Source: Marsupella aquatica
Lineage: Eukaryota > Plantae > Marchantiophyta
DNA length: 64,000 bases
Assembly (NCBI GenBank): GCA_973895155.1
Contig: OZ316893.1
Location: 24,727,520 to 24,791,519 of the forward strand
Direction of reading: 5' to 3'
This document shows, piece after piece, positions 2,801-47,787 of this stretch. Made by a program: the position numbers and the translations under genes. How positions within the stretch are numbered: the first letter of the stretch is position 1; every line of letters starts with the position of its first letter. The notes beneath the pieces were generated by a model. The model searched no databases, had not been told where the DNA came from, and saw only the letters and a program-made list of their open reading frames with translations.

Positions 2801-2892
2801 CCTTTGATTACCTCTGATGATTCCTCAGATGCACGGCAAGATTTTGACCAGGTTTCCATCCTGCCTACATTCATGCATCGACCTATCTTGCT

Positions 2893-4377
2893 TTGCTGCC
2901 ATGCTATGTTGTTGACCAACCTGTGGTGGACATATGGGAGGACAGCGACACTCTGAGATTTCTGCAGCATGGGGAGTACCCCACACATGTTACTACTGCC
3001 CAGAGAGACCGAATTCAGCAAAGGTCCAAGCGCTACTTGTGGAAGGGAGATCATCTCGTGCGCTCCTTGCCAGACAAGGAAGTGGTGGTTCCACCCATTC
3101 ATGAGAGGGTTGGCCTTATTCGTAAGGTACATTCTGAGCTTGGTCATTTTGGCGTTAAGAGGACTTACAGCCTCTTGGTCCCTCATTATCATTGGAGAGG
3201 CATGCATGGCCAGGTTCGAGATGTTATTGCCCGGTGTGAGCAGTGTGATAGGGTAAGGACTTCTTTCACGTCTCGGCAACCCACACTTCACCCACTCCCT
3301 ATTCAGGGCATGTTTTATTGTTGGTCATGTGATTTGGCTAGAGAATTACCCCTCACATCTCGGGGTAATCTCTACATCATGATCATGATAGAGCATTTCT
3401 CCAAGTGGATAGAACTTGTGGCATTGCCAGATAAGACCTCCCGTAGCACCAGCCAGGCATTCCTACAACAAGTTCTCAGCCGCTTTGGAGCTTGTGCAGA
3501 ATGTCTCACTGACCAGGGCTCAGAGTTTAGAGGAGAGTTCCAGGAGCTGCTTGATCAGGCCCTCATTGATCATCGCCGGACATCACGAGATCACCCACAG
3601 GCAGATGGCTTGGCAGAGCGCATGGTTCAGACATGCAAGAAGGGCCTCCGGAATATCTGCCTCACCAAAAACAAGGAGGATTGGGACCTGGCCTTACCCT
3701 ACATTGCCATGGGGTATAGGATGTCCAGACATGCATCATTGTCTAACTTTTCTCCCTACTTCTTGTTGTTTGGTCGTCACCCAGTTCCACCTTCTGCTAT
3801 TGCTGCTCACATGCTTCAGGTGGTGGACTTGGATTCAGCTGTGACTTGGTCTGATGTGATCTCTGAGAGGGCTGCCCTATTTAGGAGGGTTATGCCCATG
3901 GCCATGGAGAATTTGGCCATTGCACAGCACAGGGACACACTGCGTTATGCACACACACGAGGGGGCACTTTTCAGCCCAAGGTCAGGAAGTTTGATGTGG
4001 GAGATTTTGTGTACTTACAGCGGCAAGCTAACGACACCCTGGACACCTCTACCAGTCATACTATTCTCAGGGTTAAAGCTATTCGACCGTCTGGAGTGCT
4101 AGAGTTACAAGGGGCAGATGGGCGCACAATTGCTGACAATGCCAAGAATTGCGCCCCTTGTCATCTGCCTAACCTAGATCCCACCATTGTGACTTCTACT
4201 TGGATTCCACCTGTGGACTACCCTTGCAAGGTGTGTTTGCGAATTGATGATGCTGACCAGATGCTGCTGTGTGACAATTGCAATGGAGGATACCATCTTT
4301 TCTGCCTTCGGCCTGAACTTACCCAGGTGCCAGAAGGGTTATGGTTTTGCCCTTCTTGTGCTCCACGTGCTACCTGA
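2893..4377 (+). CDS. gypsy integrase with C-terminal PHD finger (4225-4359)
   Basis: HSELGH..CEQC zinc motif and DDE (SCDLA, LTDQGSEF, GLAERMVQ). C4HC3 finger CKVC..MLLCDNCNGGYHLFC..VPEGLWFCPSC. Confidence 0.92.
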   Translation: MLPCYVVDQPVVDIWEDSDTLRFLQHGEYPTHVTTAQRDRIQQRSKRYLWKGDHLVRSLPDKEVVVPPIHERVGLIRKVHSELGHFGVKRTYSLLVPHYHWRGMHGQVRDVIARCEQCDRVRTSFTSRQPTLHPLPIQGMFYCWSCDLARELPLTSRGNLYIMIMIEHFSKWIELVALPDKTSRSTSQAFLQQVLSRFGACAECLTDQGSEFRGEFQELLDQALIDHRRTSRDHPQADGLAERMVQTCKKGLRNICLTKNKEDWDLALPYIAMGYRMSRHASLSNFSPYFLLFGRHPVPPSAIAAHMLQVVDLDSAVTWSDVISERAALFRRVMPMAMENLAIAQHRDTLRYAHTRGGTFQPKVRKFDVGDFVYLQRQANDTLDTSTSHTILRVKAIRPSGVLELQGADGRTIADNAKNCAPCHLPNLDPTIVTSTWIPPVDYPCKVCLRIDDADQMLLCDNCNGGYHLFCLRPELTQVPEGLWFCPSCAPRAT

Positions 4378-4415
4378 ATTTTCTTCAGCCCTCCTTTTGG
4401 CTGTGGTCTGGGGGG

Positions 4416-5127
4416 ATACAGAGGTTTACACCTCCACTACGTACATACCACTTCATTTGCTTTTTCTTGGCACTTGTGAATGTGATTGGACTTTTTCTAT
4501 GCATGTTGGTTGCTAGCAGCTTGCACATATGCCTTGCCAGTGACTTGTATGTTTTCAATACACTATGGCTACGATACTATATGTCACGACAGCTGTCATG
4601 CCGAGGGACAGTGCCTCTTATGCACATTGGCATGTCCCTCGCCTGCCCGCTAGGTATGTAGTTAGGGCTAGTGTACTACCTGAGTTAGCGACATGTTCTT
4701 GTAGCAAGTCTGGGCCGTTCTTGAAGCAAATGTGCTTGTTAGTGTGACGCCAGGACTTTGCTTGCTTAGGGCATGTCTTTCTTTGTGGGTTTTCAGTTCT
4801 TCTTGAATCGATGTCGACAGAGCTCAGACAGTGCTCGTCGGTTCCGTACACGGGATTCACACAGTGATTCGTTAGATGCTCCCGGCCGATCTTGGCATCC
4901 CGCCGGTTTTCGATTCGATTTCAATACACTTGTTTCTATCACGCCTTTTATATACAGAGGTTTACACCTCCACTACGTACATACCACTTCATTTGCTTTT
5001 TCTTGGCACTTGTGAATGTGATTGGACTTTTTCTATGCATGTTGGTTGCTAGCAGCTTGCACATATGCCTTGCCGGTGACTTGTATGTTTTTGATACACT
5101 ATGGCTACGATACTATATGTCACGACA
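4416..5127 (+). repeat. 176-bp direct repeat (4416-4591 and 4952-5127); putative 3' LTR 4594-5127
   Basis: Near-identical copies ATACAGAGGTTTACACC...TATGTCACGACA. The putative LTR starts TGTCATG and ends CACGACA. Confidence 0.8.
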
Positions 5128-5530
5128 AAACCAAAATCAAGCCCCTACCCTAAACCCTAACCCAAACTTCTCAATTACAACCTTACCCAAACCCCTACCT
5201 TAGACCCTAACTTAAAGCCCTCTATTAAAACCATGTCCCCAAACTGAAATATGTATAGAGCAAAAAATATGAAATCAGTGAAAAGTCAAACCCAACCCTT
5301 ACATTAAAACCTAAACCCAAATTAACCCCTTCAATTGAAACACAACCCTCCCTAAACTAAACCCTTTCTAAATCCAAACCCCAAATTAAAACTCAAACCC
5401 TTTGTTAAATTAGAACCCAATTAAGATTCAAAAACAAAAACACAAAGCCCAACTACAACCTAAAATCCTCTTCTTCAAACTAATTGGCCATTCACAAATC
5501 CATGTTGAATTAAAAGGGTTTAAATAGGCC
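5128..5530. repeat. degenerate telomere-like C/A-rich tract
   Basis: CCCTAAACCCTAACCC, AACCCT and AAACCC motifs with strong strand bias. Confidence 0.55.
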
Positions 5531-5937
5531 ATACCCTTGTAAAGCCGTTTAAACACCTGGGATAGTTTCCCACCCTAAACCAAGATCACCTGCCTCGCAA
5601 ATTGCTTCACAAATTAGAGATACATTTTGCGAACCTCCCGGTCGGGTTCGCAACATCTTCGCAAATACAGAGGCCGAGAGCAATTTTGGGCGTTTCTGCG
5701 GGTTGCGATGGATTAGCGAGGGTATGTTCTTCACAAAAGTATCGCAAGTTGCGAGACCGTTTGCGAAGGTAATAGGGTGGCAGTTTGTGATGCGAATGTG
5801 ATCGCAAAGAGGTGTTTTTTGAAATGCGTAAGTATCGGCGGGAGCTCGCGTCGAGCTCATTCCTTGTTTGATCGGGAGAGCGAGAGGAGAAGGGGCCGCG
5901 GGGAGAAGATTGAGAGAGACCTGAGAGGGATTGAGCT

Positions 5938-7990
5938 ATGGCTACCGGTGGGAGTGGAGAGCACGGTGGGAGTGGAGGACATGGTGCTGGTGGTAGTGGC
6001 AATGGGGCAAATCAGGAGAAGCAACATAATGCATGGAGCGACTTAGTAGCCCAACATCTCAGTGCTGCACAGTTGGGTGAAGTAAATTTGAATACTCCAG
6101 CAGGGCTTGCCTCCTTGAGTGCCATTTTAGGCCAGGTTTTGCAAACAGGAATTGTGGCAGGGCAAGCTACTAGAGACGAGGAAGAGAGGGTCGCAGCTGA
6201 GGAGAAGGCTAGAGAGAAAAGAAGGAAGAGGGAGGAGAGGGCTAAGTTGGGAGTTGCCTCTCCTCAAGCCATAGAAAAACAGAAGAGAAGAGAGGAGAGG
6301 GATGCAATTTGAAAACAACGAGATGAGCAACGTCAGAAAGAGGATGCAAGGAAAAAGCTTCCATTCATTGCCTTGGAGACAACTGGGACTCCAACTAAGC
6401 TAGCCTATGCAGGGGCTAAGAGCACCATCAAACAGATCATCACAAGCAATTTCTCACGAGGCATGCAATGGGGAAAGGTTGAGAAGGCAGAGCGAAAGAG
6501 AGTGATGAATCAGATCAAGGATGCATTTCGTAATGGAGCTGACATAGATGAGCAATGGTTGGCAGACAAAATTTCTAATTCCATGTCTCAAATGAGATAC
6601 CATGATAGGATGAAGATTAGAGCCCACCTGAGAGACTTGAGATCGTACAGGAATTTGCGCAGGCCCCTCCAATTCACTGAGGACATCTGGAATGCATTTT
6701 ACAAGATTGAGGTGCAAATCAAAGCAGCTCGCGAGTTGGAACAGTGGAAGGATACACTAGCTCGATCCCTGAAAGCAAAGGAGACCGGGAAGCTCCCCCT
6801 TGACCATGACCTGAAGGGACTTGAGCAAAAAATAGCTGATGTGCAAAAGGTGGTCGACGAAGAAGGAAGACCACCCAAACGTTTCATGGATGCAGCCAAG
6901 CGAGTGAAAGCCACCCCCAATCCAGTCCACAAGCTGGGTCAAGGCGGGCTCCTCGGTCTCAAGGCCCACTTTGTGAGTGTCTCCTCTCCTCCCTAAGCTC
7001 TTTCCTCCTTACTTTCTCAGTTGAGGTAATGCAAGTGAATGGAATGTCATGAATGTCCATGCTCTCATGTGCTTGCTTGTGCACTATTTTAGGTCACGAT
7101 TGACACTTAGAAATTTGCACATATTTAAAAACCTCTCGGGATCACAGTTTGAAATCCCATTGCGATGCGTATCCATTTGCAAGAGCCTCGCAAACTCTAT
7201 TATGCACTTTTTTCTTTTTGGATTTTCTGATGCTGTTGCGAAGGTACGCGCATCGCAAAAGCCATCGCAATGCCTTCGCAAAAATTAGGGCTTTGCATTT
7301 TGTGAACACATCAGCTTCGCAAATGTGAATTTGAGTTGTTTTCAAAGTAGTTTAACTTTTCTAGGCCTAAGGCCTCTTGCATTGTGAATTTTGGTTTAGC
7401 CTATGGGTTTAATTTTTGGTTTTATGGTGCATGGCAGTACCGAAAATATAAGAGGAAGATATCCAAGAAACATATTGAGATAGGGATGGAGCATGGGAGA
7501 AAGTACCTCTTTCAGATGGTGGATGCCGAGTTGGCTATTGTAAGTATCTAGGTGTTCAAGGTTTAATTAATTGTGATGCCAACATTGTGGATGACCCTTT
7601 TTAATTTGTAGAAACTGATTAAGTGTACGGATGTAGGATTTGGATGAGCCTGAGGGGTCGGGTGCTGACGCAAGTAGTAGTGATGATGAGGATGAGGGGG
7701 CTACTCCTCTTACCAGTGGTTCTAGGGAGAGGGGCAGTAGCCGGGAGGTAGGTTCATCCCATCGCGGTAGTGGTAGTAGTTGTGCATCGTCAAGACAGGT
7801 TGATGATGAGGGGGAGCAGGAGGGAGGTGACGAGGAGGAGGATGGGCATGAGGAGGAGGAGGAGCAAGAGGAGCAGCAGCGCCAAAAGGCACCACGCACC
7901 CGTCAGCACCAGGCTGTACATCCACAGAAGGATAAGGGCAAGAAGCCGGCAAAGAAGCCGACAAAGCGGGGTCGGAAGAGTCCATTTTAG
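5938..7990 (+). pseudogene. CACTA accessory (TnpA/Ptta-like) spliced gene, premature TGA at 6310
   Basis: ORFs 5938..6312 and 6373..6996 are in frame across one TGA. HKLGQGGL motif before a GTGAGT donor (~6973). Further exons ~7438-7539 and ~7638-7990 (acidic/basic tail). Confidence 0.55.
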
Positions 7991-9518
7991 TTAGCTTGTA
8001 GAATCTCATGACCGGGCTCATGAGATACATGTCACTGACTAGCCGTGTTGGAGCTTAGCTAGGATAGCATATGTTGAGTAGGGTGACTTGGCATCAGATA
8101 TGCCACCCCTCTTGTGTATTGGGTTCCTTAATTCAAGCTCTAACATTTTGGTATATCCACCTATATACTTGCATGGATCTTATAAAAAACATTTGCCTTC
8201 CACATTGGGTCCACTGCCAAGAGAAATCCCTCGCAAAACATTGATTGAAAGTGAGTCGTGTTCCCATGAAAGTGCAAACCCATTGCGAACGTGGATAACT
8301 AGGAAATACTGAAATGACTCGGATCGCTATTATAGAACCAAGTAACATCACAAGTTGCGAAGTCAAACGGTTCACAACTTCTGGCCTAAACCAACTCACA
8401 AGTTCCGATCCAATTTAGATCGGAAGTCCCCATCAAATTTATTTCGCATAAGAGTGATCTTATAAGGCTCGCTAGTTGCCAACCCCACGACATCGCAAAT
8501 ATTGAACTCATTCCCATCACAAACACGTAGCGAACCTTCCAGCTTCACAAAAACCAACGTCAGTAACAAAGGACCGTGCGGCATAATGCGAAGCGTCTGC
8601 AACAATTTTGAACTCGCAAGTGTTCGACAAGTTGCGAGGGAATTCGGTTGGGAAATTGTCATGGTGTTGCGATGGCGTTGCGATGGTCCGCGTGCGAAGG
8701 TTTTAACTTCACAATTTGGGATGGTGTAGCGATGCGTGTTAGTTCGCAAGTTCCGGAATTCTGTTTATCGGGCCTTTGTTGATTGCGATGTGTATGGGTT
8801 CGCAAAAGGGGCCGATAGTGTAGTAGTGTCTAAAAGAAAATGAAGCCATTTTTTTTGTCTCTGCAAGAAGTAGTGCAAGGCTGTCGTCCTTCCATGTAAT
8901 TGTGTCATGTTTTTGCCGGTGTTTGGATGGGGAATATTCTATTTTGCAAATGAATAGTGACAGGGCACTCAAGGAGGTAGTGTAATCTTCATTGAGTCAT
9001 TTCTGAAAAAACTGGTGTCATAAATACCAATGACTACAAGTAGGGTCATTAAATCTGTCATATGGGCTGTCACACAAGTCAAATGACTGGAGTTGTGGTC
9101 ATTTGAGGGGTCCTGTGACGGAGTCCCGCCACGGTAAGTCACCATTAGTGTCACCAGCAAGACACTTGTAAATAAATAAGCCCATAGATGCGAGTTTTTT
9201 TTAATGTTCTTTAAGTTTGTAAAGTTTTTTAATGCATCTCGGGATAGTCGGAGACCCCAACAGTTTTGTCTAGACCCGGGTTAATTATGGGGCGAGCGAG
9301 CCCTGCATAGGGCCGCGAGCCGCCAGGGAGCTACTAGGTGCGAGGGCGCGAGCTGCGGGTGGAGGGGGAAATTAAAACCCCCTTAGAGGGCTCCGCGAGT
9401 GATCGGGCAGGGGGGCCGCGAGCCCGCGAGGACGCGAGCTGCGAGGAAGGGGGACTCCCGCGAGTCGGGTGTTGTGCGCATAAACATCGCTACACAATAG
9501 AGTTTTGGTGGGGAGACA

Positions 9519-9802
9519 CCCACAGGCCACGGCTTGTAGCCAATTCATCTTGGTTGCATGGGTAGTCACCCACAGCCCACGGCCTGTGGCTGATTCATCT
9601 TGGTTGGGTGGGTTGGCACCCACAGCCCACGGCCTGTGGCCTCTTGCAGTTTGGTTGCGTGGGTAGTCACCCACAGCCCACGGCCTGTGGCTGATTCATC
9701 TTGGTTGTGTGGGTTGGCACCCACAGCCCACGGCCTGTGGCCTCTTGCAGTTTGGTTGCATGGGTAGTCACCCACAGCCCACGGCCTGTGGCTGATTCAT
9801 CT
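9519..9802. repeat. tandem repeat, ~101-bp period built from CACCCACAGCCCACGGCCTGTGG subunits
   Basis: Units start at about 9566, 9667 and 9768. Confidence 0.9.
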
Positions 9803-10660
9803 TCAAGAATAATCGAACAACGATTGATGCCAATCAAACACACAATCTTGTCTGACGCGATCACACACTTATGTCAAGCCAAACGCACCTTGCACCTCAA
9901 GGAGGTGATCAAGGCCAAGGAGGGGACCATTCATGAGAAGGTTAAGCTTCTCCAAGCAGCTCACGTAGAGATCTCCAACTTGAAGGGAGCCTTGTCCACC
10001 AAGGCCAAGGAAGCAGAAGAGGTGGGAGCGTTGAGACAAGCATTGGCCAAAGAGAAGCAGAATTCTGGAGAAGTGGTGGAGTGGAGAAACCAGGTGGGAG
10101 CACTACGGAGTCAGGTGGCCGCCTTTGAGACACGAGCGATGAGGAGTGAGGCCTTGAGTCTGGGGAAACGGAAGAGCCCCGACACACCTAGCTCCACACT
10201 TTCCCCGGATTTGATCTCCCAGGCTATTGAGATGGTGGTGAAGGAGGTTAGTGGGAAGTATGGGCCCTTGTTGGATGGAGTCAAGAAGAGTCAGGAGAAG
10301 AGCAAGGGCTTGGAGAAGAAGCTCTGGGAGGTACGGAAATCATTACGGGAGGCTCAGGTCAGTACGGGGATGCCACCCAGGTCTGTCACCCCCGGGACTC
10401 CCATGGCCACAGAGCAAGTTCTACCGTTGGAGTTGCGGTCCGGAGAAGAGGCTACCCTATGGAAAGACACCATTGGTGAGGGGTACATCAAGGCGTGGCA
10501 GGCCTTGGCCACTTTGAGGAAGCAAGGGAGCGGCAGCACGAAGAGTACCCCGGTAAAGAAGAAGAAAAGTGAGGTGGCACTCACTCCCGTGAGTGATGAA
10601 GAGGAGGCCCACTCACGGGGCACAAGCCGGGGCACCGAGAGTGAAGAAGAGGAGGAATAG
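9701..10660 (+). CDS. uninterrupted coiled-coil/charged ORF inside the solo-LTR-like element
   Basis: 319-codon open frame with E/K/A/L-rich heptads (VKLLQAAHVEISNLKGALSTKAKEAEEVGALRQALAKEK), a KKKK NLS-like motif and an acidic tail. Confidence 0.5.
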   Translation: MVVWVGTHSPRPVASCSLVAWVVTHSPRPVADSSSRIIEQRLMPIKHTILSDAITHLCQAKRTLHLKEVIKAKEGTIHEKVKLLQAAHVEISNLKGALSTKAKEAEEVGALRQALAKEKQNSGEVVEWRNQVGALRSQVAAFETRAMRSEALSLGKRKSPDTPSSTLSPDLISQAIEMVVKEVSGKYGPLLDGVKKSQEKSKGLEKKLWEVRKSLREAQVSTGMPPRSVTPGTPMATEQVLPLELRSGEEATLWKDTIGEGYIKAWQALATLRKQGSGSTKSTPVKKKKSEVALTPVSDEEEAHSRGTSRGTESEEEEE

Positions 10661-10673
10661 ATAGTCGTACGGA

Positions 10674-11001
10674 CTCGGGGGGGTCACTTCCACGGAAGTG
10701 ACACATCACGTGCGACGAAGTATAGGCCCATTTAAATGGGTGTGACGGAAGACTTCAAAAGTTTGGTGGAAGAACACATAGGGCATGTTTTATTGATTGG
10801 TCGACTTTAAAGAACACATAGGCCTATTTAATTGCAAAAAATACTTTCTATAAAGTTTTTAGGGGTTTTTTAATAAAAAATGACAAAATTTTAAGAAAGA
10901 AAGGGCTTTGCGAAAAAATATTTTTCACTTTAAAGTTAGGGGGGTCAAACCCTAAAACGTCGCACGCGATGTATGACCCTCCATATAGTGACCCCCCCGA
11001 G
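10674..11001. mobile_element. MITE, copy 1 (8-bp TSD CGTACGGA)
   Basis: TIRs CTCGGGGGGGTCACT / AGTGACCCCCCCGAG. TSD at 10666-10673 and 11002-11009. Second copy at 19892-20217. Confidence 0.92.
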
Positions 11002-14000: not shown

Positions 14001-15666
14001 GGTTTGTGTGCTTCTCTGTCTCTCTCTCTGACTGCTCGAGTTTTGCAAATAAGGGTTTGGTTGCCAAAGTAAATTAGGAAATGCCATTTTTCCTGTCTGT
14101 CTGTTGATTTCCGACAGTCCTTATCAATTGTTCGATTGTTCACGTTGGTCCCTGTCTTGTTTGTTGGGTTCTAGCATTGCCTAAACAGATCCCCCTAGTT
14201 CCTGTACAGTTTGAGGTTGTTCATCCCATAGCCACTGTCAAGTCTGCGCCTAGACTTGCTCAATATTTCAAGTCCATGACTGTTTTTGTTATGCAGCGGA
14301 ATGTAGCCTCTCAAAATAAATCATTCACACAACTCTGACCAAATTAGCAGTTCAAACTGCCACTCGTCTCCCTGGTTCAACCCAATGCACATCAATTGAT
14401 CAAATCCTCTGCCAGTATGTAGAGCACAATCATACATTTGATGAGGCCCCATATTTTGAGAATTGTTGAAGGCAGCCCTTGGTTCGGGGTTTAGTAGGGA
14501 ATGAAGATATAAGAGTCGGTTATTGAAGTTTGGTGATCGAGCCCAATGTCTCAAGAAGAGCTTAAACTGTCGCTGGTATTTTATAGTATTCCAAACGGTT
14601 GGTTCGCTTTGTCATTGACCTCACGGTATACCTGTTTTGAAGTTCGGGCCAAGCGCGAGTAGAATTTTCCCACCACTTAGACTCTATCTACATATATGCG
14701 GAGGTTCTCAACCTCGTACACATAGGCACCTGCAGAGCACTAAGCTAACAAACAATACTGGATGATTGTGTAACTCAGGTCTCACTGATTCTCTCTGGCT
14801 AAGTATCATTCTCCGTTTCCATGTCTCCAGTCCACATCCCATTTGGTGAACCATGTAACAGATGGCAATGCTTTCGACCTATGCCTTAGACCCCAGTGTT
14901 AATATACAAGAGGTCTAAGTTGAGTGACGCATTGAAGTAGAATCACCGACTGTTAATCCTCGCTGAGAGGGACCTGCCCTTGACAGTACCATAGCCCAGA
15001 CCTAGTGAAGACCCACTGAATGACAAAAATCTGCGTATGTTGGATCTCTGTTGCGTTCTACTTTCTTTCACAGATTTTCTTGTTTTCTGTCCTCTGTGTT
15101 CAGCTTGCGGGCGGGTTTTGTCATGATTTGATTGGGTCATTGTTTTGAAGTCGTAGCCGTCCAGGTCAAAAGCTGGTCTATAAAAAATGAATTCATGGAG
15201 CTTAGGTTGCTGCTGTATATAAAGCCCAGCAGGATCCAGAACTGGAAAACTGTCCCAGCTTACTACTTGAATCTGAAATTCAAGTTAAAAAGACATGAAC
15301 TATTTGCTCTTAATTGCTATGTACCATCTGACATTATATATGATGAATGTACTTAAACAATTCACTCTCATTGTGTCAGACAGTTCTCTCCATCGCGTCC
15401 TATTAATAGCACATTGTTGCATAATTAGAAAGTTCATTGCACTTCTGACTTTCTTATGTGCAGCGAATGGAGCTTAAAACATGAGAATCAAGCGTTGGCA
15501 ACTGACAGCCGTTGCTAAAAGTTTGTTGTTGAGTGAATAGACTGCCTTGATCAGATAACAGTCTAGGATGGTTTAAACGACCTCACAAGGAGAAAGCTTG
15601 TTGAGAGTACAGTAACTAAGTACGGTTCTATAACAGATGTGTCCAGCACCTTAAGACGTAGAAGGC

Positions 15667-18402
15667 TTGGGACCTTTGGGGAAGTGTGTGTCACCTTTAA
15701 TTATGATTAGTCCACAGCAGACCGGTTTCATTCCCGGTCGACATATTTTGGAGAATATCTCGCTTACTTGGTTGGCAAGCGACTGGATTGAATATACGCA
15801 GACCCCATCTCTCTTTTGGAAACTTGACTTTGAGAAAGCTTTTGATAGGGTTGACCATCTTTACATCTGGGAGACTATGAACCTTCTAGGTCTTAGTTCA
15901 CATTTCATCCTCTTGGTACGGTCCCTATTAAGCAACTCTTGCTCTAAAGTTCTTGTCAACGGTCTTTGGTCTGCTGATATTCACATGTGCAGAGGAGTCC
16001 GGCAGGGGTGCCCCCTCTCCCCTCTTCTATTTGCTATCTCTACTCAGCCCCTAATGGATTTCTGCCAGGCAGAGATTGTTGCTGGTCGTTTGCAGGTACT
16101 CAAAATCTCCCCTTCATTCACCCTCTGTTTTAGGTTGTTTGCTGACGATCTGGGCCTCTTTATCCTTGCTGATGTGATAGCTTTTGAGCAAGCCACAAGC
16201 ACTATTACCTGCTATATCAACCATCATTCCCTTGGCACTTGAAGAGATCCCTGGCTGGCTACAGGACACTGGCTGTACAATCAGCCCTGCTGGCACTGTG
16301 CAGAGATATTTGGGTGGACCTTTTGGATCCAATCTTACTGAGAAGCAACTACATTTCTTTTGCTTAGACCAGATTAGTGCACGTCTTGCATCCTGGTCCA
16401 CTCGCTTTCTTTCCTTCACAGGTCGTCTACTGTTAATCAAGCATGTGCTTCAGGCCATCCCGGTCTATCACATGATGTTCCTACTCTCTCCCGTTGCTTT
16501 GACTAAAAAGCTGATTGCTTTAAACCGAATTTTTCTGTGGGGTTCAAACCCGCTGGGTGGAAGACGCATCCCACTTGTGGCTTGGGATAAGATGACTCGA
16601 CCCAAATCTGACGGAGGACTTGGCCCGAAGGACTTCAAGAGTCACTCTGATGCCCTTCTGTGTAAGTGGTTTACTGGCGCTCTGGACCATCCTGAATCTG
16701 AATGGGCTTGCATGTTTGCGGAAAACCTTCGACTTACCAAATGGCGGAACTACAAGGCTATACGTCGAAGCTCTTACTCTATGGCTGATAAGTTGCTACT
16801 CTGTACCCCTCGTAGCTTTGGGAGACTTACGTATACGAATCAGTTGTGGAGTGCCTGGGAGAGAATGAGATCAAATTTGATTTTTTGTCCTACTGAGGCT
16901 GATCATATCCCTGGCCACTGGGGATTTGAAGATACTATCCGTTGTCTACAAGGGTTCTACAATTTACCTGAGATCAATATTGTGCTGCTAACAAGAATGT
17001 TTGGTTCTCTGGGTATTAGGAGAATTTGGGACTTCTGGTCTACAATTGATGGCGCTTGCCTGGAAAAATGTTGAATTATGTATACATCGTCTGAGAGGCC
17101 TTACACTTCCCACCAGGACTTTATGCCTCTCTCTTGTCGGTGTGATCCATGGCTCTCCCTGTGAGGGAGATGCTATTGCTTCTCGTACCTGCATGTGGCG
17201 CTGGTTGGATCGGGAGGAGAGAATGAATCGTTTTGACTTAACAAATGCACGTGCTTATGAGTTGCTTCGCCCAAAAGGCACTGACTCCGCCCGGCTGAAC
17301 CGGATCTGGGGGGAAAATCTACCGGATGAGGATTGGAATAGAGTGTGGAACACTGTGTGGACTTCTGACCTCTCTACCCGTGCTAAGGTCTTTCTGTGGC
17401 GGATTATTGTGCAAGGCTTGTTCTCTGGCTGTTCTCTCTACGGATTGGCAAGTCGGATGGCTGTTGTGGCTTATGTGCTGGGACAATTGAAACTATTCCT
17501 CACATTTTCTTTTCATGTCGTCATGCTTGTTGCTGTTGGCTGGAGGTCCACGGATGGATGGAGGATGCACTCTACGATGGATCACCAAGTTTATTCACTC
17601 TAATTTTTTCCGCTGCAGGGAAACTGCCTATTCACTCTCTTTGGATTTACACGGTTTACCAGATTCTATGGTGCATTTGGCTAACCCGTAATGCTCAAAC
17701 TTTTGACAGAACTCGTCACAGAATCTTTGATCAATTGCTGGTGATTTCTGAGATTCTGGACCACTTGAATGCGGTTATCACATCCACTTTGGTGCTGTCT
17801 ACCTCTCTTTTAAGTCACAAACACCGACGCCTCTCAGATGCTAAGGGACTGATAGAGACAGAACGCATCTGCATTCTAAGGAGTGGGGTTAGGAGGATTG
17901 AATCCATCCTAGATGGCGGTGCTGCAGGAGGGCACCCGACGCTTTGATCCTTTTTTTAGGCCAATGAAGCTCTTAGCTAATAGTTTACTTAGCTGCCTTT
18001 GTATCCTTGATCATAGGCCTACTTTATATCTTTAGGATTAGGAATTTTTGCTCTTATGCCTGCCCTAGATCTTATTACGGTATTCCGAGCTGCTTGACTA
18101 CCCCCCCTTTTTTTACCCTTGCAGGCTTGGTTGACTGATAAGCCTTAGGACCATACTTCTGACAAGACATCCGTCTCCTGGCACTGGCACTATTTTGATT
18201 CTGCTTTGCCCTTGAGTTGATTAGATACAACTGTCTGAGTGCCAGTGAACACTTGATTCGTACTAGTTTTCAACATCTGTGGGATCTGATGTCCTTGACT
18301 TTATTGGACTCTTATTTGCCCTTTGTGGCTTCTGCTGCCTTTTGGCCTGCTGGTTCCCCCCATCCGTGGGGTTCACGCGGAATAAAAGTAAAAACAAAAA
18401 AA
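15667..18402 (+). mobile_element. 5'-truncated L1/Tx1-type LINE (RT + zf-RVT), frameshifted
   Basis: QTGFIPGR, KLDFEKAFDRV, GVRQGCPLSPLLF, FADD and YLGGP motifs, plus CCHC CGLC..ETIPHIFFSC. Ends in AATAAA and an A-rich tail at 18381-18402. Confidence 0.9.
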
Positions 18403-19809
18403 CTATACTCCTCAACAGAATGGTGTTTTTAAGAGGCTCAATTGAACACTATTGGAACGCTCGAGGAGTATGTTGAGCCAATCATGCTTACCACATGAAT
18501 TTTGGGCAGAAGCTATCAATACTGCAGCTTATTTGGTAAATTTCTCTCCATCTAGTGCCATGGGAATCAAGACGTCATTTGAAATAAGGTACGGGGGTCA
18601 AGTGGATTATTCACATCTAAGGGTTTTTGGATGTGATGCTTATGTGCTTACACCTTCTCAGCTTCGGTCTAAGTTGAAGTCCAAGTCGAGGCAGTGCATT
18701 TTCCTTGGATATTAGAAATGTGTAAAAGGTTATAGGTTATGGGATCCAGTAACCTCTAAGTTAATTGTCAGTAGAGATATTTCCTTTAATGAATCCAGAT
18801 CATCAAAGGAGGGGGAGAGTTCTTAGGGCTCCCATATTGACAAGGAAAAATCCCCTATCCCGGACCCGGTTGGGGGGGAGATAAGTCATGATGATGTTCA
18901 TGATAGGAGAGAAAAAGATGCTTTGGGTATGAAGCTAGTTCTTGTGATGGAACAAGAGGAGCAGATTGATGTTGGTGTACCTCAAATTCAGCCAACAGCA
19001 GCAGAAGATCAGCCTGAATCATCTACTAGAAGAACTTCCAATCGTTCTACTAGAACTCATACCAGGTATGGACAATAGGCAGATTCATCTAAACTAGATG
19101 ATGTTAACATTGCGCTTGACGATGATCATATAACTTTGATCTTGGAAGAAGGAGAGCCTTCTTCGTATCATGAGGCAAGTGCTTCAAAGCAAAAGCAACA
19201 ATGGACTGCAACAATGCAAACGGAGATGCAGTCACTGAAGGACAACAAGACTTGGGAGTTGGTCAAGCTTCCTAAAGGCCAACAAGTGGATTTACAAGCT
19301 GAAGGATCAATCCATAGGAGGTGGATCAAAGGTCTACAAGGCTAGGTTGGTAGCCAAGGGATTCACACAAGAAAAAAGTGTGGATTACAATAAGGTCTTC
19401 TCACCAATTGCTAAGTACTCTACAATACGGCTATTGTGTGTACTTGTTGTTTTATTTGGTTTGCTGCTAGAGCAGATGGATGTTGTCATAACTTTCCTCT
19501 ATGACACCTTGGAAGAGATGATCTTCATGATACAGCCACTAGGTTTTGTGAAGAAAGGACAAAAGGATTTGGGCAGATTATTGAGATCCTTGTACAGGTG
19601 GATCAAGGCAGTGGAATAAGCGGTTTGACGATTGGATCCGTGCACAGGGTTTTCACAGGATTGTGTTTGATCCTTGTGTGTATCTTAAACCGGTGAAGAA
19701 TGTTGTGCTTGGTTTTATTATTTTAGTAAGTCTTTATGTGGATGACATGCTTATTGCGGCCAATGATAGATTTGAGATTGTTAAGCTCAAGACACTGCTT
19801 AGTGCAGAG

Positions 19810-20489
19810 TGTTAGGTATTGCTCTTAGTCTTGTGACTCATGAGCTAACCATAGTTAGACTAACTCGGGTTAGGACTTATCTAAGGTTAGCCTTAGGGGG
19901 TCACTATATAAAGGGCCATACATCGCGTGCGACGTTTTAGGGTTTGACCCCCTAACTTATAAGTGAAAAATATTTTTTTGCAAAGCCCTTTCTTTCTTTA
20001 AATTTTGTCATTTTTTACTAAAAAACCCCTAAAAACTTTAAAGAAAGTATTTTTTGCAATTAAATAGGCCTATGTGTTCTTTAAAGTTGACCAGTCAATA
20101 AAACATGCCCTATGTGTTCTTCCACCAAACTTTGGAAGTCTTCCGCCACACCCATTTAAATGGGCCTATACTTCGTTGCATGTGATGTGCCACTTCCGTG
20201 GAAGTGACCCCCCCGAGAGGTTAGCAATAGTTCTGTTGTGTATATAGCCAGGGCTGGTGCCAGACCCTGGAGGGACTAAAGGTTCATTGTTACAGAGCTA
20301 GTCGAGAGATAGGAAGAGCTTGCATTGTGGATGCTTGGTATGGCCGGTCGGCCTAGAGTGCAGTAAAGCTCTTGTGTGTTCCCGTGGACGTAGCCTCATG
20401 TGGAGGTGAACCACGTATCTCTCTGTGTCGACTCTTGTGAGTTGGATGGTTCATGGGCTTGCCGTTGCGATTGTCGTCTATGCTCAACA
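19810..20489 (+). mobile_element. solo LTR of a related copia inserted in the RT (5-bp TSD CAGAG)
   Basis: CAGAG|TGTTAGG...CTCAACA|CAGAG. Clearly similar to the LTR at 21592 (CTTAGTCTTGTGACTC..CTAACCATAGTTA). Confidence 0.88.
19892..20217. mobile_element. MITE, copy 2 (inverted relative to copy 1; 8-bp TSD AGGTTAGC)
   Basis: Near-identical reverse complement of 10674-11001. TSD at 19884-19891 and 20218-20225. Confidence 0.92.
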
Positions 20490-35650: not shown

Positions 35651-36481
35651 GGTGATTTATGACGGACCCCCACGGGAATTTCCTTCCAAAATCCCTAGAA
35701 GCATGTGCAGCCACATCAACATTATTGGTCACAAACAAGAATGGTTCATTACGCTAAAAGCACCAAACAAGACTGTGTGTGTTTGAAACAAGTCAAAGAA
35801 ACTCTTCAACTAGTGTAGCATTTACCAAGGTAATGTAAGAAACCATTCGGTTACTATGGAAAAAAGAACACCAAGAGAACATAAGAAACCCTTTGACTAC
35901 TATGGATAAAGGAATACCAAGTAAACATAAGAAACCCTTTTGACTACTATGGATAAAGGAATACCAAATGAATGTAATTAAGAACCCCTTTGGCCTATAT
36001 AGCATTTTGCATGGACTCTATGGACATAGGAGTACCAAGGGAACGTTTTGCATGCACTTCTTCCATGAATATTTACTTGTTTTTTCCTCTCATCTCCATA
36101 TTCAAATTTATTCCAATATGCAACTCTTCATGTGTTCCCGCATGTGTTCTAACTTAGTTGTTGAATAACATCAAACTTACATAACCAAGGGGTACGCAAA
36201 CTAGTTTATTTTTGCTGCAAACCACCACTAACCAGGGGGAAGTGTCCAATACTTATCCCTTTTTCACTTTCCTATCATTCTTCTCCTCTCCCCTTTCATG
36301 TCTCTCATTCTTCTCCTCTCCCTTTCCATGTGTCCACAAATTATGGAAAGGATACTATTTGTGGTGAAACCTGGTGTAACCAGGCTTTTGTCATGGCTCG
36401 TGGTGATGTAAATGTTTAAACCAAAAGCTGACCCATCCAACACAGGAAAGATGGTCAACCCCGGAGCATACACCTCTGATG

Positions 36482-36983
36482 GGTAGCCCACTAGGGGGGA
36501 CAATACCCAGGGATCCAGCAGGGACCCTGATCAGGAGGGAGAGAGGGTTGGACCAAGGCCCAAAGCATACCAGCTAGGGCCGAGGAGGAACCAGGACTCC
36601 CACCACTACACTCACACTCACACTCACCCTCCACAACCCTTGCATGTGGAGGGGGGATTGAACGTGGGACCTCTTGGTTCTAGGCTCATCCCCTAGCCAA
36701 CTGGCCACAGCCAGTTGGTTCCAAAGAGGTATTTGTTGGCTTTGGTCAGTTGGCCTGGGGATAAGCCTAGAACCGAGAGGTCCCAGGTTCAATCATCCCT
36801 CCACACCAAAGTGGTGTAAAGGATGTGTGTGTGTGTGTGTGTATATTTGTGAGTGGGGTGTATTGGTGGGAATCCTGGTTTCTCGTCAGCCCCTGGCTAG
36901 CTTGTTTTGGAGCCGGTTCAACCCCCCCTCCTTTACTGGGTCCCTGTTGGATCCTTGGGTATTGTCGCCCCTTGCGAGCTACT
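36482..36983. repeat. ~500-bp imperfect inverted repeat with tRNA-like A/B boxes on both arms
   Basis: GACAATACCCAGGGATCCAGCAGGGACCC pairs with GGGTCCCTGTTGGATCCTTGGGTATTGTC. Inner arms pair around ~36730. Confidence 0.8.
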
Positions 36984-37329
36984 CTACAGTGGTGGGAAGA
37001 CCCTATCCTTGTATTGTCGAGAGTATTGAGACTCCCTATTAGGGATTTGGAATCATGAGGAGGAGTGAATGTGCAACTGATGCTTGATGGGACCCAAAAA
37101 TGAAAAGTGTTACTTGATAGGATCCCTGAGTCATCCAGACCCTTGATTGATCAACCTTGATGGACCTTGAATCAACATACACAAAACCTTAGAGTCCTAT
37201 TAAGTAATCTTTTCTTTTTTGTGTCATCAAGCAAATGCCTCATGTTTAGAGCTGATATTTGGTCATTGTAAGGAAACCCTAAACTCTTCAACCACACTTG
37301 CCCTCTGAAAACTTAGGTAACCAGTAACT

Positions 37330-43200: not shown

Positions 43201-46200
43201 GAACCTCATCCAAAGATCGAGCTTACATACCTCACTCTTAAACTCCTCCAAGGCCTCCGTTTTCAGGTCCTGATCAAGAAACACTTTGACAGCAACATCC
43301 TGAACAGAGGTAGACGAAAATTAATGCCCACCTGACCATACAACCTGGCTTCTAAGGAAGTGCCTTGAACCTATAAGATGGTCACGACTTCAAACTGTCT
43401 ATATGTGTGCTCAATTGTGAAGAGGATAAGCAGACACGCCAGTCTAAACAAACGCACACAAACGTGTCACAAATAAATTTCTCAATAATAAGGGAAAGAA
43501 CATCTATACTGCTTGACATTGAATTATTGTGATACGTATTCCCTTACTGGGTTTTAACATGGAGGTAGAATAACCTCGCACCCCAGATAAATCAGTGGAT
43601 GAACGACAGATGACAAACGTAGCAACGAAAACAGATGCATCAAAGTAGTCAAACTTACCGAGCCCTTACAATCTGCACGATAGACTTTCCCGTAGGACCC
43701 TGTAAGAATGCAAATAACCTTTTTCAGTACACTCATACCCCGACCCCATTAGTATGCTTATGATGAGTTAATGACTCCGGTATGAGGGTCGCAAATCACG
43801 TGACAAAGTTGAAAATGGTATGATCGGAACAGTAGGACAATTTTGTAGGCATCAGAAGCTCGAAGAGCTAACCAAAGAAAACAGAAAACTTGAATCTCCA
43901 AACTGCTCACCTTGTCCAATCCGTTCACCCATGACCACATCCTCCCAAGCAATCTCACAGTCACTGGACTGAGAAGCGATCTGGTCAAGCATCCTACTAG
44001 GGCCATCTTGTTTCCCAGAGTCATCTGATCCAGTATTTCGCCTGCCTTCTCTTGCCCAGGCTCTCTCATAATTCTGATCAGCCTCTTCTCGCGGAGAATC
44101 TAAATTCCGTGACGCACGGCCGGACGGAACCCTTTGAAATTGATCTTTCACGTCCGAAGTCTTTGTTGCATTTTCTAAAAAGAAGTTCCCCTCATCGACT
44201 TGTGTCAACCGAATTTTCGGATCTGCTTGGCTTGTCAAACCTCGTCTGTCCAGAAGATTAACTACCCCGTACTTCTCTCTATCAACATCGTACCCTCTTG
44301 CTTTATTACTCGCCCCTTGGGAGCTCCCCGCCTGGAAAAAGTCGAGCCCTTCATGGATCGGCATATCCCCACCATTCATTCTTGTTGGTGAGCCAAAATT
44401 ACGAATTGGGTCAGAATGTTTTTGCCTCTGTGGACTCTCTCCAGCACTGTATCCATCTCTATTTTTTGGCTCACCTCTGGTCCAATGCAGGACTGAGACG
44501 TTACTGCCAGCAAACGGGTTCATTCGCTCAAATTGGAGTGGAGATGGTATTACAGTTGGCGGAGGGGCAAGTCTCTTGTCGGGAGTCATTCTCGTGCCAG
44601 GATTGACGAGAAGGTCTATCATCCACTCCCTGCCAGTTGAACAATATGAGACATGTCATTTGGAACTCGTAAACCAACGAAACGATAGCCTGACAAACAG
44701 TAAGAATTCCGGAGCATGAACAAACTCACGACACGAGCACTTACTTCTCATCGCTACACTTCACAACCACTGATGCGTCATTATCTTTGCCACAGAAGGC
44801 ACTTCCCCGAACAAGGCGGCATGGCAAACCGACGCTATCAGCCAGAACCTGAAAGCAAAGGTCCCACCAATTTTTTAGGTTTAGGTGTCGCGGGTGTCGT
44901 GGTGTCACTATCATGCAACTCAAACTTAACAGCCTGTCAAAGTAGGGACGTTTATCCACACCTTGAAAAGGAGTGCACGATGTCGAGATAGCCCAACCCT
45001 AAGGACCCCAATGGGGAGAATAATGGAGCCTAGCACCTGCATCAGCTTATTGCTAGCTGTTTTCCACTCCTTTTCTAGCACCTCATCCGATCTCAGAGGA
45101 CCGCCCATGACATTTGCAACCATTTTGGCCAGTTCACTTGCCATGTCCAGCACGTCTGTGGATTCATATGCGAGGCCGACTGCCTTATCTTCAAGCTCAT
45201 TCAATGTAGGGTCCATGTTTCTATCAACTAAGACTACTTCAAAAGTGGCCTCAGTGTACGACACCGCCCGCAGGTTTTCTAATGGAGGCATCCGGCCTAG
45301 CTCGTTTGAATCTGTGCACATGCTCCACACATAAGGGCTCATGCCCCAGACTTCATAAAATCCGTCCTCGACACGGTCATCGTAACCCAAACAGCTGCTC
45401 ACCTGTTAAGACGAAACCACCACTCATTGAGAATCGCACTCTATTCCATCATGAAGCAAAGGCGTCCGTCCAAAGAATCATGACATCAAGGAGACTCGAG
45501 AGAACTTACCCAGTAGCGGTAGGCTGTCGCTTCCGTTTTAGTCATGCCAGCCAGCTGTTTGGCAATCCCCTTCGGACCCCGAACATTAGCTAAATCTGGG
45601 TCATCAACAGCTGCCGCCTCGGCGGCAACTCGCAAGGCCAAAGCCAACTGGAGCTGAAAATCTTCCTCAGCTTGCTGAAAATTCAGACCAGGTCCAATAC
45701 CAGCAGTCCACATGTTATCCACAAAACATCGTTCACTGGGGCTGCCAACTGAAGAAGCATCTGGAGCTGTTGCCGAACCTGGGGCACTTCCACTGGAAGA
45801 TCTAGAGAGGGACTTAGTGCAGATTCTCATCTGTGGTACGACTGAGGAATTCCCCATGATCTCCTTCACAACCTCCTGCAAGCCAGAGCTATCACAAGAC
45901 CCACTTTCTCCTCCCGCATGATGCTTTGAGGGAACAACCGGAGGTAAAGACGATCCATCTCCCTCCCCTCTATCTCCTTCCACGCCATCATTGGGTACGT
46001 ACACGGGGAAAGTTTGAGAATGTTCGATGGGGCGCCCAGTACTGATTGGCTGAATTGGGCCTCTTCGAGCATGGTCACTACCCAACTCTTCCCAAGGACT
46101 TTTGTGTGGTTCTGAATTCACCTGTGTGAAATCCCCTTGCCGTTGGCCCGTTCCAATCGTAAGTTTGCGCAACAGTTGCTGCACAGAGGCCCGCCCAACC

Positions 46201-47787
46201 CTCTGGGAAGAACAAATGCACAATATATGAGAAACGCCGACACCTGTAATCGTTAATGAGAAGACCCGCTGAAAACTCTCGACAAGTCATCCTACAAACA
46301 AGGATGCATTCGCAGCATTGACTGCTTAGAAAGAACTTCTACTAGCAGATAGGTCTTGCCCCTATCTAACCGTAAAACTAGCAGCTCAAGAAACCTCAAA
46401 ATGGACCGGAACATTGAGCTGATGTTCACCAGAAAGTTGCTGCTGCTATCAGCATTTGACTTCGCATCAGGGAGACTATCCTCCCCCTGGCTTTCTGCTT
46501 CGAGGTGTACTCGTCTCCAACTCAGCATGTTCTTACCGTCATCAGAACCAGTTGGAGTGATTTTTTCTTTATCACTTTCAATTAAAATACCTTCATCCGA
46601 CTGACTCCGTCTTATTGGTGTAGTCTTCACAGTTGGTAGAGAACTGACATCAAAGGAGAATGATACAATTCCTATTATTTTGTGATTGCTGTCCACGATG
46701 GGTGTGTCTGTCACCACGGTGCTTATGATCACCCCATCTTTGCGAAGAGCTGGATAAGGTCCTGACCATGACTCTCCATGACTTACTCTTCCAATGACCT
46801 CTATTAAGTCCTTCTCAAGATTCTTAGGGGAAAGCAGCTGAACAACGTTTTGACCAAGGACCTCCTCCGCTTTCCATATGTAGATGGATTCCGCGGCTCG
46901 ATTCCTACACATGCAAACAAGATTTTATACCGGTCCTCCCAATCATTAATAAAGCTCATCTTGCCCACGCTCTGACGTACAATCAAATCACACCAAAGGA
47001 AAGCCAGCGGTCCGGATTAAAATGCAGAAAACTTCGACTTCCCATTCACAGAATTGTGGACCCGATTTCTAAATTTCAAATGGGTGAGACATGCACGTTC
47101 GTATCTATGCCATGAGATTCAAGGAAAATGGCTGATTGATCGAGGAAAGAAATCACACCAACGAGTGATGTTCCCTCGGAGATCTGTGCAAATAACAGCT
47201 TGTCCAATCGACTGAATGAGCAGCACTTCACTAACGGTCATGCTCCTTTTCGAGCCGGTCGCAGAGGTTGGCAAATTGGCAAAGTCCCAGTGAGAACGAG
47301 CTCCTTTCTCTGCCGCTTCCTGTGCTAGAAGTAGTGCACTCTCTTCCTGGTCAATCACACCACCTCTCATCTCTGTCTTGTCCACCGCCCCCACCATTTT
47401 CAGCCGCTCCGAATGTGCCCTCTGCATCGTCTTGGGAGCACCACTCCCTTGTTCAGGAACATCAGAAGGAGAACCTCGTTGCTCCATAGCTTCTAGGTCC
47501 GCCTGCTGATGTCTCTGCATGTGCTTGTCACTGACGCAACGCCGAATCCATGGATCTTGTCCAGTAATCGAGTTGTCGGGGGTGAGGAGAGTCCCACTAC
47601 CATACCCTCCTAGACTACTGCTCTGCTGCTGAGCATCCCTACTTTCTAATCCACACATCCGCCGCTCATGAGCGCCACACGGAGCGTCTTCTCTCGCCTG
47701 TAAAGAACACGAAAGGTCTGAGATTGCATTTTCCTGATACGCATTACCAAGCCTGGAGCTCGGAACAGGTAATAACGGCTCCACCAT
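40211..47787 (-). CDS. ARK: B3 Raf-like MAPKKK with PAS and EDR1 domains (ARK/ANR/CTR1L type), multi-exon
   Basis: PAS: [42 protein letters not shown]1: [46 protein letters not shown]. Kinase: [38 protein letters not shown]. Stop at 40211. Start ATG inferred. Confidence 0.9.

Follow-up and report, generated by a model that had tools for sequence, protein, structure and literature searches.

A Gypsy-DNMT3 retrotransposon of the liverwort Marsupella aquatica with a PHD finger at the end of its integrase and split direct repeats

The left end of a 64,000-nucleotide stretch from the liverwort Marsupella aquatica (GenBank assembly GCA_973895155.1, contig OZ316893.1, positions 24,727,520 to 24,791,519 of the forward strand; the window in the following) holds the Pol region and the 3' end of a Gypsy retrotransposon on the plus strand, with gag and protease lying upstream of base 1. 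The first Pol domain in the window is a DNMT3-like C5 cytosine methyltransferase (93-1052), which is interrupted by in-frame stops at 264 and 546. It matches Pfam DNA_methylase (PF00145) on one piece (E=2.4e-07), is 71% identical to the open-frame homolog P0107 and, when the stops are read as X, finds DNMT3A as its best PDB match (E=7e-9), followed by DNMT3C and DNMT3B, with HhaI far weaker. Across 179 full methyltransferase domains the catalytic residues are kept (Cys in 174, Glu in 175, the two Arg in 175 each). The element thus carries the DNA-methylation writer that a sequence-only reading of the window had proposed, although stops interrupt it here. The methyltransferase is followed by reverse transcriptase (RT) and RNase H (RH) at 1404-2806 (Pfam RVT_1 and RT_RNaseH; tblastn), with a stop and a frame change near 1998, and by a DDE integrase (IN) at 2878-4200, composed of HHCC zinc finger, core and C-terminal part (Pfam Integrase_H2C2 and rve; tblastn), in a frame that differs from that of RNase H. 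With stops at 264, 546 and about 1998, and frame changes within RT and between RNase H and integrase, the window copy is broken. The CG/GC ratio is 0.16-0.34 in the element versus 0.38-0.62 in other repeats of the window, but this depletion is not counted as evidence, since self-methylation and methylation by the host both fit it.

The integrase lies in a stop-free frame (2848-4374, 509 residues, stop codon 4375-4377) that comprises Integrase_H2C2, rve and, as its last domain, a PHD finger of the no-Trp type, which forms the C-terminus of Pol (4216-4359, plus strand). As the sequence-only reading had seen, the core at 4225-4359 encodes a complete C4HC3 finger (CKVC-x11-CDNC-x4-HLFC-x12-WFCPSC), including the LLCD strand and the GGYH motif with Gly two residues before the His, and the Pfam PHD profile is matched over its full length (1-47 of 47, E=7.6e-12, 45.5 bits versus a cut-off of 24). 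The acidic residue noted before the first Cys is present as an Asp three residues upstream (4216-4218), and thus outside the core, but the position that corresponds to D308 of KDM5B, four residues upstream, is a Val. No Chromo match to the element was found in Pfam, and the PHD finger takes the place at the integrase C-terminus where chromoviruses carry a chromodomain. For the statement that PHD-bearing integrases are known from gypsy lineages of non-seed plants no published source was found, and "PHD" occurs 0 times in the main text of PMC6317226.

Homologs were collected with the integrase C-terminal part plus PHD (94 proteins), the methyltransferase (89 proteins), RT-RNase H (best 120 of 2,540) and the integrase core alone (at least 150 representatives). 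Named relatives come from Marchantia, Klebsormidium, Coleochaete, Closterium, Pleodorina, Haematococcus, Monoraphidium, Tetraselmis, Cymbomonas and Pseudoscourfieldia, while the viral contigs searched contain no relative of the element. In the integrase tree (FastTree only; 151 rows, after 90 of 241, of chlorophyte type, were dropped at random; outgroup not on one side) the window integrase falls into a starred 47-row clade (SH-like support 95) together with the PHD-bearing P0327 of K. nitens, Closterium and Coleochaete, and P0333 of K. nitens, which has integrase and methyltransferase, belongs to a wider starred clade of 73 rows. A DNMT3-related Gypsy element with DIRS-like repeats has been described in Klebsormidium nitens (de Mendoza et al., 2018; PMC5890265). 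Because it shares this integrase clade and the same A-coding-B-A-B repeats, the window element belongs to the Gypsy-DNMT3 (KnitGypsy-Dnmt3) lineage, which extends to Marchantia, Coleochaete, Closterium and chlorophytes. In accordance with this, a DNMT3-related domain with intact catalytic motifs sits in a Gypsy Pol; it has stops in the window copy and is open in relatives such as P0107, in which methyltransferase through PHD form one open frame. The close loci (best 80 of 452, 71-84% identity) show the order gag-protease-methyltransferase-RT-RH-IN-PHD as far as the contigs reach, save for deletions and nested insertions. A second order, RT-RH-methyltransferase-IN-PHD, occurs mostly in chlorophyte-type members; the window element has the methyltransferase before RT. 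In sister subfamilies a first open reading frame (ORF1) ends past the methyltransferase and ORF2 begins before RT, with recurring lengths (1,033-1,137 residues); the ORF1/ORF2 pairs (P0184/P0004, P0222/P0012, P0226/P0162 and P0182/P0113) were assigned by equal length of their source sequences.

Several further observations concern the relatives. Marchantia yielded methyltransferase-bearing pieces, with no PHD among them, and many Marchantia gene models (Mp_4g09160 and others, in the cluster of P0170) correspond to ORFs of this family that encode gag, protease and methyltransferase; among the 15 models listed in that cluster, 4 are on chromosome V. Public databases list P0147, likewise a family member, as a protein of an uncultured cyanobacterium, and it probably represents mis-binned plant DNA. 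Many chlorophyte-type members have a long tail past the PHD (more than 250 residues in 64 of 112), whose end (P0197 residues 1075-1301; similar in P0017, P0335 and P0414) comes closest, among named Atlas clusters, to phage-type adenine methylases (scores 0.94-0.95; MTS in 26% and N6_Mtase in 36% of the cluster members); a weak Tudor match lies upstream of the adenine-methylase-like domain in P0221. These chlorophyte members are possibly dual-methylase elements, distinct from the EpiLTRs considered below. Identity with Troyka was rejected, since its CG...CG termini, 3-bp duplications and restriction to animals do not apply.

Downstream of Pol, the 3' end of the element is built from split direct repeats in the arrangement B-A-B. 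A G run resembling a polypurine tract (4410-4415) abuts the first copy, B1 (4416-4591), which presumably is the outer part of U3 and ends in GACA; the run has the same position in the listed relatives, and loose ends lie before the start of B in runs X1 and X4. B1 is 98% identical to B2 (4952-5127), which likewise ends in GACA and forms the 3' end of the element. Between them lies A2 (4594-4951), which would comprise an inner U3 and R-U5, and the B1-A2 junction is a palindrome, GACA-GC-TGTC (4588-4597), the putative pair of integrase attachment sites. In all four runs of the window's own family the flanks vary before 4594 and behind 5127, which marks these positions as ends. The second A copy is the 5' end of the element and lies outside the window. 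In the 25 loci with a visible 5' end this end consists of A alone, whereas the 3' end takes the form B-A-B in 42 and a single B in 30 of 79 PHD-anchored loci (7 unclear; 9 loci are duplicates); 5 of the 30 single-B loci continue into a truncated or decayed A. The element ends are TG...CA. Of 22 loci, among them one duplicate pair, 11 have an exact 4-bp target duplication, 6 have one with a single mismatch and 5 have none; duplications occur in both repeat forms. The order protease-RT-RH-IN, the TG...CA ends and the 4-bp duplication are those of Ty3/gypsy elements, but the two complete terminal long terminal repeats (LTRs) of that group are replaced by A at the 5' end and B-A-B or B at the 3' end.

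The repeats also point to the mode of priming. The 12 nucleotides behind the 5' A are complementary to a site that lies 118-146 nucleotides upstream of the end of A. At least 10 of the 12 positions pair in 18 of 19 loci, compared to means of 8.0-8.6 and maxima of 9-11 in the controls (3 further loci lack the anchor motif), and the self-priming stem reaches z=-4.4 in L075. In the window's family the predicted self-primer and transcript start (4795-4806) pairs without mismatch with the 12 nucleotides after A, which are visible in 3 of 4 runs, while the other family differs at two paired positions. Self-priming is known from Tf1/Sushi and Tcn1 (PMC6317226). The spacer of the B1-A palindrome is GC in 11 of 34 loci and AC, GT or AT, the products of GC deamination, in 21 of 34. 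In standard LTR replication, purine tract and primer site delimit what becomes the LTR. As purine tract and self-primer bound the unit B-GC-A, the attachment ends would lie inside the LTR, and because the TG...CA ends derive from the palindrome within this unit, cleavage by the integrase probably takes place within the LTR, and likely on a circular copy. According to this model, the element RNA would self-prime from the 12-mer in A as in Tf1, reverse transcription would build an LTR of the form B-GC-A, and the integrase would cut the internal palindrome, probably on a circular or end-joined copy. If both strands of the palindrome were cut behind CA, the usual 2-nt overhangs would result; a one-LTR circle, or cutting at two sites, would yield A-coding-B and a two-LTR circle A-coding-B-A-B, that is, both observed forms.

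The residues of the PHD finger allow its ligand to be predicted. The five PDB matches displayed (WSTF, CHD4, Lid/KDM5 PHD1, ATXR5 and BAZ2B) are all fingers that we take to lack an aromatic cage, as do most of the 60 listed of 88 matches, with KDM5 PHD1, MOZ, DPF and UHRF1 fingers further down; ING or BPTF fingers are not among these best 60. In KDM5B, PHD1 contacts Ala1 of histone H3 via L325, P347, G349 and W351, Arg2 via D328, Thr3 via E321, and Lys4 via D308, Y310 and L326 (PMC4225485). By spacing, seven of these nine residues are kept in the window (L325, L326, D328, P347, G349, W351 and Y310), so that the Ala1 pocket (Leu, Pro, Gly, Trp) and the Arg2-binding Asp of KDM5 PHD1-type readers of unmodified H3 are present. 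Among 120 non-redundant representatives with a parsable finger, the Asp after the third Cys is conserved in 111, the Trp in 113, the Pro in 94 and the Gly in 87. The residue two before the His, which is Gly in the window, is Gly in 104 and Trp, as in the aromatic-cage readers of H3K4me3, in one; 103 combine the core Leu, Asp and Trp with a non-aromatic residue at this position. An acidic residue stands three positions before the first Cys, as in the window, in 69 (background 10%) and four before it in 20. Since the cage Trp is absent and the Ala1 and Arg2 residues are kept in 103 of 120 relatives, the finger probably binds the unmodified H3 tail, as the sequence-only reading had suggested from the pattern of the finger. 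Relative to the window, the finger diverges at non-synonymous sites (pN) as little as the integrase and RT (0.15 in 65 loci, versus 0.14 and 0.13), compared to 0.21-0.26 for the methyltransferase and 0.30 for the linker; pN is quoted rather than dN/dS because synonymous sites are saturated (0.58-0.95). The PHD is thus as conserved as the integrase core. An AlphaFold model of the integrase C-terminal part plus PHD, for which 8 rows were aligned, was of too low quality (mean pLDDT 45.9) to be used.

PHD and methyltransferase are both widespread in the clade. Among 150 listed representatives found by the integrase core, and thus with neither domain in the query, the PHD is C-terminal in 130, absent in 2 and unscorable in 18, and the methyltransferase is present in 77, absent in 2 long ones and unscorable in 71, so that both are near-fixed and shared by descent. 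In 83 rows of the tree both domains could be scored: 70 rows contain the pair, 10 the methyltransferase only (including P0179, which retains a diverged finger) and 3 the PHD only, and no row lacks both. The proposed pairing therefore holds as co-occurrence across the clade, but each domain has been lost alone: the tree shows 3 and 4 changes, none of them joint. Sequence identity of methyltransferase and integrase is correlated (rho 0.53, 122 proteins), whereas the partial rank correlation of PHD and methyltransferase beyond the integrase is 0.09. In the order of the window element RT and RNase H separate the two domains, whose median distance is 1,070 residues; in the chlorophyte order the median is 520, and the methyltransferase precedes the integrase by a median of 82 residues (112 proteins). 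Outside the clade, the gypsy polyproteins P0337 and P0340 combine a PHD, located before and not after the integrase, with a Dam domain before RT. P0335 carries before RT a degenerate methyltransferase (residues 172-242), apparently without catalytic motif, and sits in a PHD-bearing subclade that includes the methyltransferase-less P0441. In a Closterium-containing clade (P0297, P0306, P0309, P0310, P0317 and P0318) a short basic tail replaces the PHD and the methyltransferase is kept, which makes this clade a natural control for targeting.

Taken together, we lean towards the explanation that the window holds a broken Gypsy-DNMT3 copy whose integrase PHD would bias insertion through unmodified H3, whose methyltransferase would work separately and whose integrase would cut inside the LTR. 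Domain content and order, with everything from gag to PHD in a single frame in close relatives, clade membership, conservation of both domains, their separate losses, the repeat anatomy and the 4-bp duplications are direct observations. The PHD, once bound to the unmodified H3 tail, would likely bias insertion toward silent chromatin; after processing of the polyprotein it would stay with the integrase and the methyltransferase would not, so that the latter likely works apart from the PHD, probably on the element's own DNA copy. The simplest reading of the pair is that of two independently useful accessories. A number of findings weigh against this explanation. The mirror product A-B-A-coding-B, which a symmetric two-LTR circle would predict, occurs in none of the 25 loci with a visible 5' A. 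In the finger, E321 and D308 of KDM5B are replaced by Ala and Val, each with an Asp adjacent, and a second Asp after the fourth Cys is missing from the window (CDNCN) and most representatives (Asp in 10 and Glu in 4 of 120). Just 31 of 123 human PHD constructs bound the H3 tail, 10 of them with a preference for K4me0 (PMC6979384), and the finger of BAZ1A, a paralog of the best PDB match WSTF/BAZ1B, binds DNA and not histone peptides (PMC5636791). The isolated K. nitens methyltransferase produced no methylation in yeast, which its authors judged inconclusive (PMC5890265). With only 7 loss events, a test for independence of the two domains cannot reach significance. The flanks are mixed as well: position in a nest of transposable elements (TEs), as noted earlier, is true of the window copy, which abuts a CACTA-like repeat, but is not a rule of the family. 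A scan of 64 flanks, up to 6 kb and limited to the 150 longest of 226 frames without a stop, revealed TE domains at 5 loci and domains of host genes at 6, of which one is 408 bp away; decayed TEs would escape such a scan. In 31 flanks CG/GC is flat with distance, near 0.25-0.3. CWG/GWC rises from 0.34 (0.25-0.46) within the first kb to about 1.1 beyond 4 kb, which speaks for the explanation, but this loss of CWG beside insertions fits insertion into CHG-methylated DNA or later spreading.

These points bear differently on three other explanations. The PHD could be a protein- or DNA-binding or folding module of the integrase that reads no histone, with insertion showing no chromatin preference. 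The many human fingers that failed to bind H3 peptides, the DNA binding of BAZ1A, the missing second Asp, the lack of a strong target-site motif and the genes among the flanks are all compatible with such a module, but the residues that are conserved are the very ones that bind Ala1 and Arg2 of H3 in KDM5B, and the finger occupies the position of the chromodomain of chromoviruses; we therefore regard a non-reading finger as unlikely. The coupled action put forward in the sequence-only reading, whereby PHD and methyltransferase would work jointly like the ADD and catalytic domain of animal DNMT3, with recognition of H3K4me0 and DNA methylation at or near the site of insertion, appears quite improbable. 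It would account for the retention of both domains from chlorophytes to land plants, one pre-integration complex could carry both, the chlorophyte-type methyltransferase could remain fused to the nearby integrase, and CWG is depleted beside insertions. However, ADD acts by allosteric contact with the adjacent catalytic domain, and the domain order of the element offers no such adjacency: in the window subfamily RT and RNase H intervene, in sister subfamilies the domains belong to separate ORFs, none of the seven losses is joint, the partial correlation is low and the PHD is also found with Dam. The reader is thus neither adjacent to the catalytic domain nor retained with it as in DNMT3.

The third alternative concerns the repeats, which could replicate as in the PAT/Ngaro type of DIRS elements, by template repair from the internal B-A junction, so that purine tract and self-primer would define no conventional LTR. 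The order A-coding-B-A-B is identical in DIRS elements, and the form A-B-A-coding-B is absent (0 of 25 loci). A DIRS/PAT element with tyrosine recombinase is excluded by the rve integrase and the 4-bp duplications; the TG...CA ends, these duplications and the DDE integrase also argue against the DIRS-type route, as does the fact that purine tract and self-primer flank exactly B-GC-A. Replication of this kind is doubtful, and both routes alike require that the integrase cuts the internal palindrome. A wider version of our favored explanation is tentative: in a clade that spans the green lineage, attachment sites in mid-LTR, Tf1-like self-priming and integration from circles might be combined with a PHD that targets H3K4-unmethylated nucleosomes, a DNMT3-type enzyme that pre-methylates the copy and, in chlorophytes, an adenine-methylase-like domain. 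If true, this lineage would be the first among LTR elements to be guided by a PHD, to methylate itself and to integrate from circles, with high copy numbers in land plants.

The repeat into which the window copy borders (5128-8829) is CACTA-like, with clusters of TTGCGA/TCGCAA and, near 8829, a terminus of the CACTA type in minus orientation, and its part 5200-6000 is covered by multiple contigs. Telomere-like CCCTAAA runs are located at 5137-5420 and spliced-looking ORFs without family match at 5935-7990; the ORFs of this repeat (including 6313-6993) have no usable counterpart in Pfam or the Atlas, and a transposase was not found among them. Across the family, repeat cover of the flanks in an all-against-all BLAST is flat with distance (0.17 to 0.12; last bin excluded, duplicate pair L039/L045 included), and a Phygy-type preference for NCGN targets was not seen, with a central CG at 1 of 48 ends. 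Further into the window follow a tandem array of a 50-bp repeat (9500-9803) and a coiled-coil-like ORF of 321 residues (9695-10660), a 323-bp inverted repeat that joins 10674-10996 with 19896-20217, a decayed plant L1-type LINE (15100-18000), a copia RT fragment (19239-19619), a self-complementary stretch of 524 bp with 70% inverted identity that resembles a hairpin or MITE (36471-36994) and an intron-split host gene on the minus strand (43852-47829) for a Raf-like kinase with PAS and EDR1/CTR1 domains.

The Gypsy-DNMT3 element type has been in print since 2018, and a chromatin reader (a chromodomain) together with a DNA methyltransferase (DNMT) in one LTR element since a 2026 preprint. Fusions of PHD fingers with TEs are common (10.1101/2021.11.30.470311; PMC6673714; PMC8557442). 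No paper was found on a PHD in Gypsy-DNMT3 elements, on their land-plant members or on the anatomy of priming and junction, in a search that did not extend to figures, most subscription journals, theses and Repbase; "PHD" is absent from the main text and three supplementary files of PMC5890265, whose Fig. 4c lay outside this search and may draw one. Transposon methylases have been mentioned for streptophytes (PMC12344493) and were stated in a 2019 review to be absent from land plants such as tracheophytes (PMC6338049); contrary to the latter, methyltransferase-carrying retrotransposons persist in land plants, and many Marchantia gene models are fragments of them. Targeting of integration by PHD fingers of retrotransposons has been suggested before (PMC6673714; PMC8557442), and no published test of it was found; in Marchantia and Klebsormidium, for which chromatin maps exist, the clade offers a small, conserved case on which the idea could be tested. 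The repeat anatomy, which provides a concrete mechanism by which split direct repeats would work with a DDE integrase, is the more surprising result compared to the pairing of PHD and methyltransferase, and elements with split repeats presumably escape programs that look for two LTRs. The main value of the element lies in testable PHD targeting and in the internal attachment sites, and not in a coupling of reader and writer.

Among known systems, KnitGypsy-Dnmt3 is closest, sharing the DNMT3-related domain in a Gypsy Pol, the A-coding-B-A-B repeats and the integrase clade with its homologs P0327 and P0333; no statement was found in its description on a PHD, on members from land plants or chlorophytes, on self-priming or target duplications, or on the way in which an integrase could handle split repeats (PMC5890265). 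The EpiLTRs or DAM-LTRs also unite a chromatin reader with one or more DNA methyltransferases in one LTR retrotransposon, but their reader is a chromodomain and their DNMT is sister to DNMT4, whereas the window element has a PHD and a DNMT3-like enzyme; single elements of that group combine chromodomain, DNMT and Dam, and their authors set them apart from Gypsy-DNMT3 (bioRxiv 10.64898/2026.05.21.726589). Chromoviruses (MAGGY, Tf1/Sushi, Tcn1) likewise place a reader at the integrase C-terminus, and Tf1/Sushi and Tcn1 self-prime, but they have a chromodomain in place of the PHD and two terminal LTRs in place of the split permuted repeats, and the methyltransferase sets the window element apart from them. 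The catalytic domain of animal DNMT3A/3B (PWWP-ADD-catalytic) is homologous to the methyltransferase of the element, which lacks the neighboring ADD and PWWP and has its PHD on the integrase. With the no-Trp fingers of KDM5 PHD1, BAZ2A/B, ATXR5 and WSTF/BAZ1B the window finger shares the fold and the Ala1- and Arg2-binding residues; it differs in having its N-terminal Asp one position closer to the first Cys than D308 of KDM5B and in lacking the second Asp after the fourth Cys. The PHD-nW-DD subtype is defined by two Asp (xCDxCDx; PMC10570056), and since a second Asp or Glu is this rare among the representatives, the finger is not of that subtype. Finally, the integrase of foamy virus is reported to act on the palindromic junction of two-LTR circles (PMC1180852), as proposed here; there the junction is formed by ordinary LTR ends, whereas in the window element it is permanently encoded inside the repeat.

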